Shown: positions 8,247-14,626 of the stretch, in pieces | Layout of the letters: each line of letters starts with the position of its first letter | Position numbering within the stretch: position 1 is the stretch's first letter | Notes under the pieces: generated by a model | The model's database searches: none | What the model was told of the DNA's origin: nothing | Seen by the model: only the letters and a program-made list of their open reading frames with translations | Origin: an uncultured Candidatus Poseidoniales archaeon | GTDB taxonomy: Archaea > Thermoplasmatota > Poseidoniia > Poseidoniales > CAYMED01 | Reading direction: 5' to 3' | Length of the DNA: 60,538 nt | NCBI GenBank assembly: GCA_964389655.1 | Contig: CAYMED010000007.1 | Coordinates: 31,399-91,936 of the forward strand | Position numbers and translations under genes: made by a program

Positions 8247-9245
8247 GTGGTTCGATGCGCATTTCGTGTGCTGATTGCTTCATCACTCTTGTTGATCCTT
8301 AGCACGACCTCTGCATACCATGATGGACCACCCCCTGTTGACAACAATCAAGATCTAGTAATTGAGGCTGGATGTACTTGCCACGGTTCGGGAGGGCCAC
8401 TAAATGGAGCATATTCACCTGAAACGATGATCAAGGTCAAAGGTGTTCCGTGGAATTATGAGCCAGGTGTTGAATCAACATGGACAATCAGCATTGAAGC
8501 AGCAGGTTCCACAGTGGGTGGTTTCTTGCTCAACTCCACTACACCGGGCACCTTTACGTGGGCAGAGGATGCCGGAATTAGGCCATCTAAGGGAAGTGGA
8601 TTAGATGCCGGGGCAACTACCGCACCTGCAGAGATTTCTCAGAATGATGCTGACCGTCTTCAGTGGGTAGTCTCCTTCACACCAGACGAAGACGCATCAG
8701 AGCCCCTTTATTTCACGCTGTTTGGAAATGCCGTCAATGGAGATGAAAATTCTGATGAGGGAGATCGCTGGGCATGGGTCCATTTCAATATGGATCCACT
8801 TGCACCGGGAGATGCTGCGCGTGATGATTCAGAGCGAGTCATCATGTCAACTGACAGAAGAACGATAGATGAGGGAGAAGATCCAGAAGCATCAGAAGGG
8901 GCAAACCAAGCCGCTGCCATGGAGTGGGTCTTCACAAATGGGAGTTTAGCATATTTTGCCTCGCTTACACTGCTTATCGTTGCCGCCGTTTTTCAACGAG
9001 AAATCTTTGAGCGCCGTGAAGGAGGAGGACCGATATACCTCGCAAAAGAGATCGCACTTCCGCAAGGAGTCAAGCGAGGAGTGCTCGCAGTAATCCTACT
9101 AGGCATCGGCAGTTATGGGGTGGTAAGCAATTGGCCTCTCCCAATGGTCTGGATACTCTTATTCAGCTCTGCTTGGGCGACATATGGCGTATATCGATCC
9201 ACCCGCATGGCACGTGCACCACCTGCTGTATCTGACATGGTGTGA
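8247..9245 (+). CDS. Exported Reeler/choice-of-anchor-V-like protein with a GCTCHG motif and C-terminal TM helices
   Basis: Sec-like signal peptide; GCTCHG; GVPWNYEPG...TISI...GGF...GNAVNGD..GD pattern of Reeler-like beta-sandwiches; about 3 C-terminal hydrophobic segments. Confidence 0.6.
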   Translation: MVRCAFRVLIASSLLLILSTTSAYHDGPPPVDNNQDLVIEAGCTCHGSGGPLNGAYSPETMIKVKGVPWNYEPGVESTWTISIEAAGSTVGGFLLNSTTPGTFTWAEDAGIRPSKGSGLDAGATTAPAEISQNDADRLQWVVSFTPDEDASEPLYFTLFGNAVNGDENSDEGDRWAWVHFNMDPLAPGDAARDDSERVIMSTDRRTIDEGEDPEASEGANQAAAMEWVFTNGSLAYFASLTLLIVAAVFQREIFERREGGGPIYLAKEIALPQGVKRGVLAVILLGIGSYGVVSNWPLPMVWILLFSSAWATYGVYRSTRMARAPPAVSDMV

Positions 9246-9249
9246 AGGG

Positions 9250-10533
9250 ATGGCAAACATCCGATTGGCAGATGATGAGGCAGAGCCCATTGTCAGTCAT
9301 GTTATCGACTTGGGCAATCGATTACGTGTGTGGATATTCTTTGTTACATTGACGGGGGGCCTGCTTTTACTCCGAATAGATGGCATGATCGCATTCGGAC
9401 TTGACCGGCTTTCCCCTTGTGGGCGGCCTTGCTTGCGAGTCTATGGACCTGCGGAATGGACAGCACTAAGGTGGAGAACAGTATCCGTAATCGCAGTTAT
9501 TGTAACACTCCCCATACTTGGTCTTCTCCTAGATGGGTTCGCCAAAAGGGGGTTACTACCAACTGAGAGACGTGCTTGGAGAGTAACGTTAGGAGTGATC
9601 GTTTTTGGTCTACCGGTGCTGTCATTCCTGACAATTCTAATGGGGCTTCCTCGCCTCTTTTCCATGGCTGCAGCGGATGCTGACACGTTGGGTGTGAAAG
9701 CAGCCTATGATGCTGCAAGCATGCATCGAATCGCACTTGGATTAATATGGGTTGAAGCAATTCTAGGCCTGTGGATTCTAGCAACAATCCTAGCAATTCT
9801 GAGCAAGGCAATCGGTCCATCCGACCTAGATTCTTGGCGATTTCGTTCATCCATTATGGCCGCTGTCGGGCTTGGCCTAGGCACCCCCACCGAACTCCAC
9901 GAGGCCGCATTCCTAGGGTGGATTGCGACTTTTACCGCAATTGAGATCATTATCATTTGGTTTGGCCCTAAAGGAGCCGATTTGGCAAATGGGCCAAAGA
10001 CCGTCTTGGATACCGAAGGTCGGCGATATAGGTACACACTGATTGATTGCAGTTGCTTAGGTGGTTGCCCTCAAATCGAGACATTACCCCTATTGCAGGG
10101 CTCTGGAAGGGTCAGAGCAAAGGGATTGTGCGCGTTGTCCGCAGAGAGGGACATGATCGTTGATTTAGCGAGGCGCGGGAATTGGACTAATGCGGTAATT
10201 GTTGGTTGTGACGGCAACCCTGTACCTCGCCGGATGATAAACACACTTGATACGATAGGATGTAAGGTACAGGGGCTGTCAATTCTAGACCTCGCGATCG
10301 AAAGTGGGCTAGAAAGCGACTTAGAACAGTTCACAATCGCAATGAACATTGCAGCAATGGATGGCCCATGGACACCGGAGCAGCGCAACTCACTGCGTGC
10401 AGAAATCGAACACAAATTCGGAGTCCACCCCCTACGACATGACACTAGAGGAGAACATGATCAAAAAGGCCCTAAAGTAAGAATCGGAAAAGACGGGGTT
10501 GTCGAGATGCGAAGAGATAATAGTACAGAATAA
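9250..10533 (+). CDS. Divergent TatC-family protein fused to a Cys-rich C-terminal domain
   Basis: EPIVSHVIDLGNRL resembles TatC PLxxHLxELRxRL; GPAEW resembles xPxE; GFAKRGLLPTERR resembles FxxPGLxxxERR; about 6 TM helices. The C-terminus carries CSCLGGC...GLC...IVGC. Start set at ATG 9250, 4 nt after the upstream stop. Confidence 0.7.
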   Translation: MANIRLADDEAEPIVSHVIDLGNRLRVWIFFVTLTGGLLLLRIDGMIAFGLDRLSPCGRPCLRVYGPAEWTALRWRTVSVIAVIVTLPILGLLLDGFAKRGLLPTERRAWRVTLGVIVFGLPVLSFLTILMGLPRLFSMAAADADTLGVKAAYDAASMHRIALGLIWVEAILGLWILATILAILSKAIGPSDLDSWRFRSSIMAAVGLGLGTPTELHEAAFLGWIATFTAIEIIIIWFGPKGADLANGPKTVLDTEGRRYRYTLIDCSCLGGCPQIETLPLLQGSGRVRAKGLCALSAERDMIVDLARRGNWTNAVIVGCDGNPVPRRMINTLDTIGCKVQGLSILDLAIESGLESDLEQFTIAMNIAAMDGPWTPEQRNSLRAEIEHKFGVHPLRHDTRGEHDQKGPKVRIGKDGVVEMRRDNSTE

Positions 10534-10582: not shown

Positions 10583-12709
10583 GTGCGACGAGCCATCACC
10601 TCCATCATTGCACTGGCGTTGGTCGCTGCATCTATCGCAGTACTGGTCGAGCCGAGCATCATCGCAGGAATAAGGGAGCGAGTATCCCCTTTTGTGGATG
10701 ATTCATCAACTTCTGAATCGGAGTTAGAACTTGTGGGTATCTCTCCAGTGGAGCGCTGGATTGTCTTACTTGTTGAATTTCCAGATTCAAAAACAGATGT
10801 TGATGTTGCTAATCAAAGGGCTTCATCCTATTTTTCAAAAATCTCAAAATGGCTCAACCAAGCAACTGCTAATGAGAGTCGACTTGAGGTAGAGATACAC
10901 ACCGCATTGCTTACCGCAATTGGGCCATCACATGAGTGGGGGATGAATGGAAATGTACGTGACACGGGGATCGAGGGAGTAGATGGGCCTAGGGATCTTG
11001 CAAGATGGGCTGTGAAAGAAGCCGGTCCAGATGTCAATTGGTCCCATGGGGACCTCAACAATGATGGTATTGTAGATCGTCTTCTGATTCTCCACAGTGA
11101 CGAGCCTGAAGAAGACGGGGGGGGAAGCAATGCAATATGGAGCCATTTCGGGAGTCTTGGTGAGCCTATAGACGCTGGTTCAAAATTTCTTGTCCAACAC
11201 TACACAATGGCATCGTTTGCACAGGGAGGGACTTCTAGGTCCCTCGGGACAATTACGCATGAAATGATGCACCAAGCAGGCGCTATCGACCTTTACGACA
11301 CACATAGTGGTAAGGATACAGAGGACTGGTCTGGTCTGGGTGATTTTGACATCATGGCTAGTGGAAACTGGAATGGAAATGGCCTTCAACCAGCATTGCC
11401 AAGTGCCGCAACATTAGATTTAATCGGCATTAATCGATCGCAGGAATTAGAAAAATTGGAAAATCAGACATTAGAACTCACTGGAATGAGTATTGGAGGA
11501 AAGGCAGTCCGCATTGAGATTGGGCCACAGGAATTCGTTTGGATTGAACATAGGTCAGACGATGGTTTTGACCGCCACCTCCCAGGCTCTGGCATCTTAG
11601 TTACCATTCAGGACAAAGGCGTAGGTGGTGTTGATGACAATACTGCCAACATGGATCCTGAACGCCCGTGGTTAAGAGTCATCGAAGCAGATGGAAATAA
11701 TCGATTGCTGCGGGGGATGGACCATGGAGTTGCATTAGACCTCTTCACATCTAGCAGCAAATTTGGTCGGGAGGGAATACAAATAAGGAATCATCTTGGG
11801 CAAGTAGTACCTTGGACTATCGAAGTTTCTTCAATTAATGGAAGTATTGCATACCTTGATGTGTCGAATGCAAGTACAAATCTCAAATTTGACGCTGGAA
11901 GGCTCCCCATCGGTGTCTTACGGAATACAGCCATTCCATTTATCCTTGAATCAAATTCAGAATGCACACCCTCATTGGACCTAATTCGTTCGGATCAGAG
12001 CGGTGGGTTATTGATTGACCTACAACCATCTAAAAGCCACTGGATTGGCTCTATTCTTCTTGACCCAGCACCAGTTAATGGTAGTTCGATTCAATTAACT
12101 GGCACTGTAAATTGTGGACTCAAAAGTCATGATATTGAGATTATGATAGTCATCCTACCTAGCATATTGAAAACCGATAGTCCAATCACTGCCAAGATCC
12201 ACAGTGATGAAGCCACATCGATCATCCACACTTTCGAGAGTGCAGATGGCGCCGGGCAGGGAACTGGGACGAGAATGTATGAACTCCGAATTGAAGGACC
12301 ACTTTCACAGATCGCAACTGTCAAATCACCCCGGGCACTTTCGCCAGGCGATTCAGTTACGATTGAAATTGATCCGCGGGGGATGCTGTCCGAAAATATG
12401 CTCGCATTAGGGACATTAGTCTTACTAGCAGACGGACAACGCGATGAGGTTGAATTAGAATTTATGACCCCTGCTCCTGTACCTGAAGTACCTCGCCTGT
12501 TTGGATTGTTAGCTGCTGAGCACCTACTCTCAATGGCACTAATGTTAATGGCGTGTTGGACAATACTCAATGGAAAGTCCACTTCTGAAACTGCCAAAAA
12601 GGACATTTTGAGGCCACAAAGTGCAATTGAATTTGGACTAAGCAATTCTAGAAACTCGACTTCAGGTATCGTGCATCCCGGGTCGGCGGCGGACGAGACT
12701 GCTGAATGA
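10583..12709 (+). CDS. M6-family (immune inhibitor A-like) zinc metalloprotease, membrane anchored
   Basis: DLNNDGIVDRLLILH, IWSH, THEMMH (HExxH), DLYD and DIMASGNWNG Met-turn motifs; hydrophobic helices at both termini. Confidence 0.88.
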   Translation: MRRAITSIIALALVAASIAVLVEPSIIAGIRERVSPFVDDSSTSESELELVGISPVERWIVLLVEFPDSKTDVDVANQRASSYFSKISKWLNQATANESRLEVEIHTALLTAIGPSHEWGMNGNVRDTGIEGVDGPRDLARWAVKEAGPDVNWSHGDLNNDGIVDRLLILHSDEPEEDGGGSNAIWSHFGSLGEPIDAGSKFLVQHYTMASFAQGGTSRSLGTITHEMMHQAGAIDLYDTHSGKDTEDWSGLGDFDIMASGNWNGNGLQPALPSAATLDLIGINRSQELEKLENQTLELTGMSIGGKAVRIEIGPQEFVWIEHRSDDGFDRHLPGSGILVTIQDKGVGGVDDNTANMDPERPWLRVIEADGNNRLLRGMDHGVALDLFTSSSKFGREGIQIRNHLGQVVPWTIEVSSINGSIAYLDVSNASTNLKFDAGRLPIGVLRNTAIPFILESNSECTPSLDLIRSDQSGGLLIDLQPSKSHWIGSILLDPAPVNGSSIQLTGTVNCGLKSHDIEIMIVILPSILKTDSPITAKIHSDEATSIIHTFESADGAGQGTGTRMYELRIEGPLSQIATVKSPRALSPGDSVTIEIDPRGMLSENMLALGTLVLLADGQRDEVELEFMTPAPVPEVPRLFGLLAAEHLLSMALMLMACWTILNGKSTSETAKKDILRPQSAIEFGLSNSRNSTSGIVHPGSAADETAE

Positions 12710-13747: not shown

Positions 13748-14626
13748 ATGAGCGGCGATTGGGAGGAGGTGGTCTCGTCGCTGACCGTGCGCGAACGAGT
13801 GCTTGTGCATCTAGCTGGTTTGCCGGCCGAAGTTGCAAAGTATGAGGCAGATGTTGCCCATACTCAAGCAGGAATTGCAGGTGCGGTAGGTATCGAAAGG
13901 AAGCACGTACCCCGCGCGATTAAAGCACTCAAAAATGAGGGTTTAGTTGACGTCATGCAAGGCCGAGCATTAGGCTCATCCCAGCGTCAAATGCTCCACA
14001 TATTAACCCCTTTAGGCCTGGAATCAGCAAAAGAGATTAGCCAAGTACACGGCATCAACACCCTGCCAACTCCCGATATTTCAGCTGAAAAGCATCGTTC
14101 TGAAAATGACAGAATCAGAGCGCTCAGCATTCTACAGATGTTGCTTCGCCGAGCATGGAGTGATGGACGCTTGACAATCGAGGAGGAAGCGTTGATCCAA
14201 GAAGCTGCACTGGCTTTCCGTGTTGGTCCTGAAACGCTAGAAGTCATGACTGCAGATGAACGAAAGGCAGTACTGGGTGATAATGCACAAGATGTGAGAG
14301 AAGTTTACCGAGAACTTCTCCGCGTAAGTGCTGAAGAAGGGATGGATGATGTAAATGACGACCATCCGATGTTTGCTGGCCTGAGGCGAGCATTAGGGCT
14401 AGATGAGAGGGAACACTCGTCACTTGCGCTTGATGTTCGACTGGAAACAGAGGGACTGGAAGATGCTAGACTTAGGGCATATTTTGATGCACTCTGCACG
14501 GCATGGGGTGACGGGGGGATCTCCGAAGATGAAAACGCGATTCTTCTGAGTTTGCGAAATACATTCAACATCACAGCAGATGAAGAGAGAGCACTGATCC
14601 GAAAAGTGCGCGACAGGTTGACGTGA
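13748..14626 (+). CDS. Winged-HTH protein with TerB-like helical repeats
   Basis: N-terminal TQAGIAGAVGIERKHVPRAIKALKNEGLV...LTPLG wHTH; repeats RAWSDGRLTIEEEALI and TAWGDGGISEDENAIL, plus a degenerate middle copy (ADG..EE TerB signature). Confidence 0.65.
   Translation: MSGDWEEVVSSLTVRERVLVHLAGLPAEVAKYEADVAHTQAGIAGAVGIERKHVPRAIKALKNEGLVDVMQGRALGSSQRQMLHILTPLGLESAKEISQVHGINTLPTPDISAEKHRSENDRIRALSILQMLLRRAWSDGRLTIEEEALIQEAALAFRVGPETLEVMTADERKAVLGDNAQDVREVYRELLRVSAEEGMDDVNDDHPMFAGLRRALGLDEREHSSLALDVRLETEGLEDARLRAYFDALCTAWGDGGISEDENAILLSLRNTFNITADEERALIRKVRDRLT

Follow-up and report, generated by a model that had tools for sequence, protein, structure and literature searches.

The locus at 9250-10533 of a 60,538-nucleotide stretch of DNA from an uncultured Candidatus Poseidoniales archaeon, a stretch that we call the window, raises the question of what role a TatC-like membrane protein may have when a cysteine-rich domain is fused behind its membrane part. 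A first-pass annotation had described this protein as a degenerate TatC paralog joined to an HdrA-N-terminal/MvhD-like Fe-S domain, and had offered redox or cofactor sensing, or proofreading of metalloprotein export, as its function. Our best reading, which is drawn from sequence comparison and structure prediction, is that the protein, here called TatC-A, would be the receptor subunit of an asymmetric translocase and would have, next to its signal-binding site, a docked accessory domain that is probably of the Fe-S kind.

Reading frame, fold and conserved sites of TatC-A

The tatC-A open reading frame (Table 1) codes for 427 amino acids without an internal stop. It begins 4 nt after the upstream gene ends and contains the motifs that the first-pass annotation quoted. 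The ATG at 9250, and not position 9184, is the likely start since homologues share the same start position. The fusion of the two domains is real, as both lie in one reading frame, a Foldseek search with the model finds TatC and then HdrA, and the same fusion is present in 119 of 151 Poseidoniales genomes, a count that leaves out one 24-residue chance match. A weak Pfam score and the 5.7% contamination of the assembly could raise the suspicion of an assembly chimera or of a chance cysteine pattern, but this is extremely improbable and already refuted by the recurrence of the fusion, by the invariance of its cysteines and by reciprocal profile matches.

Table 1. Coordinates of tatC-A, its parts and its neighbours in the window.
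Feature	Position	Strand	Basis or remark
tatC-A, TatCo-type TatC with HdrA-N-terminal-like four-cysteine domain	9250..10533	+	ORF, profiles, AlphaFold, Foldseek
Cytoplasmic N-terminal arm bearing hxLxxD (L6, D9)	9250..9297	+	kept only in proteins that have the C-domain
Six-helix TatC-fold membrane domain, residues 14-238; TM4 FExP and TM5-6 TPPD lost	9289..9963	+	
HLxELxxR-type motif (H17 = E. coli H12; D20 = E15; R24)	9298..9324	+	
C57/C61 pair, first outside loop	9418..9432	+	kept in 30/41 homologues
FxxPGLxxxE loop (F97 = E. coli F94; E106 = E103)	9538..9567	+	
HdrA N-terminal-like alpha/beta domain (C-domain), residues 246-352	9985..10305	+	
Putative metal site, [4Fe-4S] or other, of the four invariant cysteines (C267-x-C269, C294, G319-C320)	10048..10209	+	
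Helical extension (to ~residue 390) and low-confidence tail	10306..10530	+	variable; AlphaFold and homologue alignment
Gene just upstream, for an exported choice-of-anchor V protein that has CxCH	8247..9245	+	synteny conserved; functional link only a candidate
Downstream neighbour, M6 metalloprotease with N-terminal anchor	10583..12709	+	synteny conserved

The N-terminal half of TatC-A matches PF00902 with an E value of 3.6e-5 and 24.1 bits against a cut-off of 25.1 (26.2 bits in another search) and TIGR01912 with 24.4 bits against a cut-off of 192.6, and TatC-A orthologues match PF00902 down to E 1e-21. An AlphaFold model built from 41 sequences (pLDDT 88.3, pTM 0.81) places six long helices in residues 14-238, followed by an alpha/beta domain. 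When this model was compared to known structures with Foldseek, six TatC structures ranked first (including 9e01, 9dzz and 4b4a; TM by target 0.70-0.74) with HdrA chains next. As modeled, residues 14-238 adopt the TatC fold, and the assignment of the N-terminal half to TatC is borne out by the fold, with profile scores that fall on either side of the PF00902 cut-off.

In the E. coli TatC structure the residues H12, E15, F94 and E103 touch the twin-arginine motif, and the trimer is locked by TM5/6, which includes D211 and also binds TatB/TatA (bioRxiv 10.1101/2025.09.16.676506). We scored conservation in E. coli numbering for 64 sequences of the A family, to which TatC-A belongs, and 51 sequences of the B family described below. 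The A family retains H12 (100%), E15 (82%), P85 (100%), F94 (98%), G98 (98%) and E103 (100%), with Asp (D20) at the E15 position in the TatC-A of this genome. It has, however, neither F169/E170/P172 nor TPPD, of which only P210 remains (90%). Thus the claim that the TatC half is degenerate fails for the half as a whole, where HLxEL, FxxPGLxxxE and H12/F94/E103 are kept, but is right for TM4-TM6, where the erosion is family-wide. Among the signs of decay that had been cited, HVIDLG and RGL are for the most part peculiar to this genome, and TPTE does not represent a conserved relic of TPPD since Pro alone is conserved across the family. We infer that the HLxELxxR-type motif and the FxxPGLxxxE loop make up the first and the second half of a twin-arginine binding site in TatC-A. 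Canonical TatC (E. coli TatBC 9DZZ/9E01; Aquifex 4B4A/4HTS) shares with TatC-A the six-helix fold and the H12/E15/F94/E103 site, but differs in having the signal site and FExP/TPPD on one chain and in having no extra domain. By its pattern of conserved residues TatC-A is not a spare, degenerate paralog.

A complementary TatC partner and its spread

The genome contains exactly two TatC-like genes and one TatA gene. The search for canonical tatC and tatA genes elsewhere in the genome, which the first-pass annotation had proposed, thus gives one tatA copy but no canonical tatC, as the second TatC (TatC-B; 1399-2226 of L001, G000:C13) is without a signal-binding site. At least two TatC-like matches are present in 142 of the 151 Poseidoniales genomes, and the B family (n=51) has lost H12 and F94 from its commonest residues and has E103 in 17% of its members, while F169 (100%), Q170 (96%), P172 (100%), SPPD (98%) and E227 (98%) are conserved. 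TatC-A therefore has the reading site and TatC-B the TM5/6 element, so that neither appears sufficient alone. TatC-B is also the best Pfam TatC match of the genome though it is without H12/F94/E103, and is likely annotated as a normal TatC. Other Thermoplasmatota have a single canonical TatC with both motif sets; these proteins often bear an N-terminal exported domain of 200-300 aa (L108, L120, L122, L127, L128, L129, L139-L143), and one of them (L129) has a C-terminal repeat-like domain of ~380 aa.

As the first step of the proposed mechanism, TatC-A would bind the twin-arginine signal via H17/D20/F97/E106, with a Rieske protein as its main cargo. As the second step the unlinked TatC-B, which has no signal site yet keeps FQxP, SPPDP (D211) and E227, would supply the TM5/6 element and TatA docking, with a probable stoichiometry of one TatC-A and two TatC-B plus the single TatA. 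A complex of A, B and TatA with one reading site is, from these complementary motifs, quite probable. The fit of TatC-A in such a trimer is not assured since its TM4-6 is far more eroded than that of haloarchaeal TatCo. A predicted complex of two TatC-B, three TatA, TatC-A and 4Fe-4S scored 0.21 against a mark of 0.32, a score that counts neither for nor against the trimer. The pairs bear on the question of how a Tat complex limits transport to one site at once, and in small 6-TM pairs the signal reading and TM5/6-TatA functions lie on separate chains, so that each can be mutated independently.

The neighbourhood of tatC-A raises the alternative that the protein works outside of Tat, where it would anchor to the membrane an Fe-S electron carrier that acts with its neighbours (the PntAB transhydrogenase and the CxCH surface protein), with TatC-B exporting alone. 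The order pntAA-pntAB-pntB, CxCH choice-of-anchor V protein, tatC-A, M6 protease and opposite-strand endA is indeed kept in almost all loci across Poseidoniales, tatC-A is linked to neither tatA nor tatC-B in this genome, and the C57/C61 pair, a possible disulfide, lies on the outside. This alternative is nonetheless quite improbable, as A almost always has H12/F94/E103 and B lacks them, so that B alone should not read RR signals, and as the synteny persists where the C-domain has been lost and extends to unrelated housekeeping genes. The M6 protease was rejected as a Tat cargo because its N-terminal MRR is not conserved among homologues. Two choice-of-anchor V-like proteins of this genome have CxCH rather than CxxCH, one just upstream of tatC-A (8247-9245 of the window) and a look-alike that heads the Rieske/cytochrome b operon (G000:C9:7345-8322), a pair that possibly links the two loci.

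Returning to the asymmetric receptor, a 2026 review describes Tat asymmetry for haloarchaeal TatCo/TatCt only, calls it exceptional and suggests salt as its cause; this review mentions neither Poseidoniales nor Halobacteriota by name (PMC13673990). The haloarchaeal TatCo, TatCn and TatCx keep F94/E103 and their partner TatCt has lost them (PMC13673990; PMC6525301), as is also the case for TatC-A and TatC-B. There are also several differences. TatCo keeps FQxP and xPDP and TatC-A has lost both; the partner TatCt is a fused double whereas the partner of TatC-A is a single 6-TM TatC encoded by an unlinked gene; and the C-terminal extension that TatCx also has consists of four membrane helices, as opposed to the soluble four-cysteine domain of TatC-A. 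The survey that records two 6-TM TatCs in Archaeoglobus veneficus does not, in the portion cited here, treat them as complementary (PMC6525301).

We compared these proteins with those of 71 genomes in the phylum to which an ANME-2 archaeon belongs, in which the TatCo and TatCt types were recognised by architecture (double proteins of 727-845 aa being the TatCt architecture). This phylum, which we take to be Halobacteriota (GTDB), has at least two TatC matches in 45 of its 46 TatC-bearing genomes. Among 56 TatC domains, 25 are A-types that keep FxxPGLxxxE and 31 are B-types that have lost it, and these A/B domains occur both in the 727-845-aa double proteins and in ordinary 6-TM pairs, where the complementary genes are often adjacent and divergent (L224-L255, genomes G319-G385). 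Both types, A and B, are also present in the sister order of Poseidoniales, where they have no cysteine domain, and tatA, tatC-A and tatC-B adjoin in a basal, HdrA-rich member of Poseidoniia. The A-types of Halobacteriota, of the sister order and of the basal class member all contain FQxP and xPDP, which are lost in Poseidoniales. A B-type TatC of basal Poseidoniia (L268:1408-2787, G400:C3) has four extra C-terminal hydrophobic segments, a likeness to the 10-TM TatCx, in which it is the other paralog that is extended.

In a TatC tree, in which branches are long, the A-types group together with 100/99 support and the B-types with 100/98; when the motif columns were removed the A-types still grouped (99/99) and the B-type clade was not resolved. 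A constraint that forced all Poseidoniia TatCs into one clade was rejected (p-AU 0.0015), and with it an independent, Poseidoniia-only TatC duplication. Judged by this tree, the TatC-A/TatC-B pair groups with the two Halobacteriota TatC types, haloarchaeal TatCo/TatCt architectures among them, with TatC-A on the TatCo side and orthologous to haloarchaeal TatCo. Asymmetric Tat therefore looks far wider than haloarchaea, as complementary A/B pairs are present in both Halobacteriota and Poseidoniia. Almost all of the sampled Halobacteriota genomes with TatC have such a pair, as do genomes across Poseidoniia, which argues against the salt explanation. The asymmetric design is known from haloarchaea, and what is new here is a TatCo-type receptor with uniquely eroded TM4-6 and an Fe-S-type domain.

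Identity and source of the cysteine domain

The cysteine codons of the C-domain start at 10048, 10054, 10129 and 10207 (C267, C269, C294 and C320). All 58 genome-derived copies, which are typically 20-33% identical to the query, have these four cysteines as well as G319, and the cysteines are present in 37-40 of 41 divergent database homologues, so their conservation among Poseidoniales homologs, on which the first-pass reading hinged, does hold. A profile of the C-domain, when run against 201 genomes of the phylum, matches outside the order only HdrA-family N-terminal-type domains, with best E values of 2.6e-5 to 0.04 per genome and with the cysteines in register with HdrA; two of these matched proteins were confirmed as members of the HdrA family. 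Direct alignment to the HdrA N-terminal domain with hhalign gives 96.7% (E 4.5e-10), a score inflated by the assembly of the HdrA alignment from query-profile matches, whereas none of 30 column shuffles exceeds 2.4% and MvhD reaches 2.2%. The reciprocal HdrA profile recovers TatC-A fusions, and in Foldseek the isolated C-domain has HdrA at ranks 1-3, at a modest similarity (probability 0.89-0.97, E ~0.06, TM 0.49-0.56). An Atlas search gave TM values of 0.62-0.67 to HdrA-like clusters, and in a wide VIA-align search, where the best Z was 7.0, all matches were to generic alpha/beta folds and HdrA was absent from the list. Searches of the C-domain profile against PDB sequences gave no match and of the C-domain against Pfam nothing significant, Atlas feature searches were blank, and a word-based homologue search returned the query alone.

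This establishes the HdrA-N-terminal part of the originally proposed HdrA/MvhD identity, and the MvhD part was rejected. Specifically, the C-domain has no CxxC motif, its direct hhalign match to MvhD is the 2.2% given above, and only one of 36 MvhD members matches it, at E 0.047. MvhD/FlpD (PF02662) does have a related fold (73% for HdrA-N against MvhD) and shares the last two cysteine positions, but has CxxC where the C-domain has CxC. The HdrA N-terminal domain (5ODC, 7BKB, 8RVU; [4Fe-4S] cluster HA3/A3), in contrast, shares both the fold and the CxC...C...[GA]C register, and the difference lies in the setting, as the C-domain is fused to a membrane translocase subunit in a genome where HdrA was not found. 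The whole TatC-A protein has no HdrA FAD-binding or ferredoxin domains, and the REQC cysteine of HdrA has no counterpart in the alignment consensus of the C-domain. This cysteine is found in many HdrA-family members, but is not universal in HdrA as 8RVU HdrA has His at that place.

The HdrA N-terminal domain holds the [4Fe-4S] cluster A3 (PMC13518236), which has been called a shuttle cluster (PMC13580544). A methanogen-type enzyme is the probable origin of the C-domain, which probably contains an iron-sulfur cluster. In the third step of the mechanism this domain, captured from an HdrA of an anaerobic ancestor, would bind [4Fe-4S] via its four cysteines; an Fe-S cluster in the domain is somewhat more probable than not, and zinc would fit the four cysteines equally well. 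The domain should be cytoplasmic if the usual TatC topology holds. A basal family of class Poseidoniia has many HdrA copies and is a plausible source. Marine Group II and the sister order each have one genome with an HdrA-like protein of ~1160 aa (L259, G036:C5; L258, G176:C3), while most of their genomes lack one, and the G036 protein ends in an MvhD-like domain.

Gain, loss and possible role of the cysteine domain

A TatC-A match, almost always single-copy, is present in 145 of the 151 Poseidoniales genomes, and members of its cluster are named Ca. Poseidoniaceae, Thalassarchaeaceae and Poseidoniales, which identifies the family as Marine Group II. About 23 sampled genomes have a form of TatC-A without the C-domain (241-291 aa). 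By genus, the domain is present in 0/10 and 0/4 genomes of two genera and in 1/9 and 3/8 of two others, and mapping onto the tree gives one gain at the base of Poseidoniales and about four losses, with at least three changes forced by well-supported branches. No stand-alone copies of the C-domain were found in the 151 genomes except for one contig break and one frameshift. The C-terminal extension behind the domain is shortened in many Thalassarchaeaceae-side homologues.

Loss of the C-domain is accompanied by loss of L6, D9 and R24. D9 is present in 47 of 48 proteins with the domain as compared to about one of 11 without it (the latter read by eye from an ungapped display), and R24 in 43 of 48 as compared to at most one of 11, where the 11 domain-less sequences represent only four loss events. 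As these co-lost residues flank H17/D20, this suggests that the C-domain docks beside the signal-binding site, with the N-terminal arm (L6, D9) probably being its docking site. In the fourth and weakest step of the mechanism the C-domain would dock on this arm and tune cargo access by the occupancy or redox state of its cluster, as an accessory control and not as a required step. Redox or cofactor sensing, one of the functions first suggested for this protein, is a possible role for the domain. The first three steps taken together with an accessory role of the C-domain at the binding site we consider evenly balanced, and tuning of cargo access by an Fe-S cluster is a tentative proposal that leans toward the doubtful. 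Rather unlikely as a whole is the wider, joint proposal that the two-TatC asymmetric design is ancestral to Halobacteriota and Poseidoniia and not a salt adaptation, and that the Fe-S cluster of the receptor gates signal-peptide binding.

The same co-loss of L6, D9 and R24, together with the pTM of 0.81, also suggests a fixed intramolecular dock, as would be expected if the C-domain of the same asymmetric receptor were a metal-stabilised scaffold (with Zn or a redox-inert Fe-S cluster) that senses nothing, and that props the eroded TM4-6 half or offers a cargo-docking surface where there is no TatB. The gain of the domain and the extreme erosion of TM4-6 fall on one long branch, and with HdrA not found in this genome the domain has no native partner, both of which fit a scaffold. 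However, TM4-6 is just as eroded in TatC-A proteins without the C-domain, and these lineages evidently cope. The four ligands are moreover invariant at 20-33% identity, which any metal site could explain and which is more than a pure structural prop needs. We hold this scaffold role to be a minority possibility, though a serious one.

A proofreading role, in which the C-domain as proofreader or cluster donor would free Fe-S cargo such as the Rieske protein only once its cofactor is loaded, gains some appeal from the cargo itself, as the Rieske protein of a cytochrome bc-type operon is the one clear Tat cargo that this genome was found to encode, and from the probable position of the domain next to the signal site. 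The RR motif is present in 30 of 30 Rieske homologues. An RR-bearing Rieske protein is, however, present in 147 of 151 genomes including domain-less lineages, and in 10/10, 9/9 and 8/8 genomes of three genera where the C-domain is wholly or partly missing. Since the domain-less lineages (the ~23 genomes noted above) keep Rieske, the C-domain is not an obligatory Rieske proofreader, and the earlier suggestion of a proofreader for metalloprotein export fails in its obligatory form. Co-occurrence of the C-domain with Rieske was rejected for the same reason, as was co-occurrence with molybdopterin-family genes, which do not track the domain, and with a CCG-fused cytochrome b subunit, which was in five of five genomes tested whether the domain is present or not. 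As the C-domain also resembles an electron-shuttle cluster domain and not a scaffold family, we regard proofreading as improbable.

We found no papers on TatC in Poseidoniales or on a TatC/Fe-S fusion in a literature search that covered few subscription papers, and the C-domain as a TatC add-on is not described in the papers searched. We know of no described protein translocase in which a core subunit is gated by a cofactor. If gating of signal-peptide binding by the cluster is correct, a single receptor's Fe-S cluster would link Rieske export to iron or oxygen status in Marine Group II, and should the cluster exist and influence export, protein export would be tied to iron/redox status in abundant ocean archaea. 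If the C-domain is only structural, it would amount to a curious but minor case of domain capture.

Several other redox and exported proteins were seen in this genome. The CCG-fused subunit lies behind Rieske and cytochrome b and is a 1339-aa fusion of cytochrome b subunit IV, a 4Fe-4S dicluster and a CCG (HdrD/GlpC-like) region (L188:3504-7520; G000:C9:10503-14519), the CCG part of which is 75-77% identical in five other genomes. An NrfC/NrfD-like fusion is followed by a molybdopterin oxidoreductase (G000:C26:6509-10727) that probably faces the cytoplasm since it is without a Tat signal. A sulfatase-like protein with a bacterial-style Tat signal is present on a small contig (G000:C66:1-1404) and may represent contamination, which is 5.7% in this assembly. 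Finally, further along the window, a protein at 13748-14626 that combines a winged-helix domain with two TerB-like repeats lies opposite the tRNA intron endonuclease gene.
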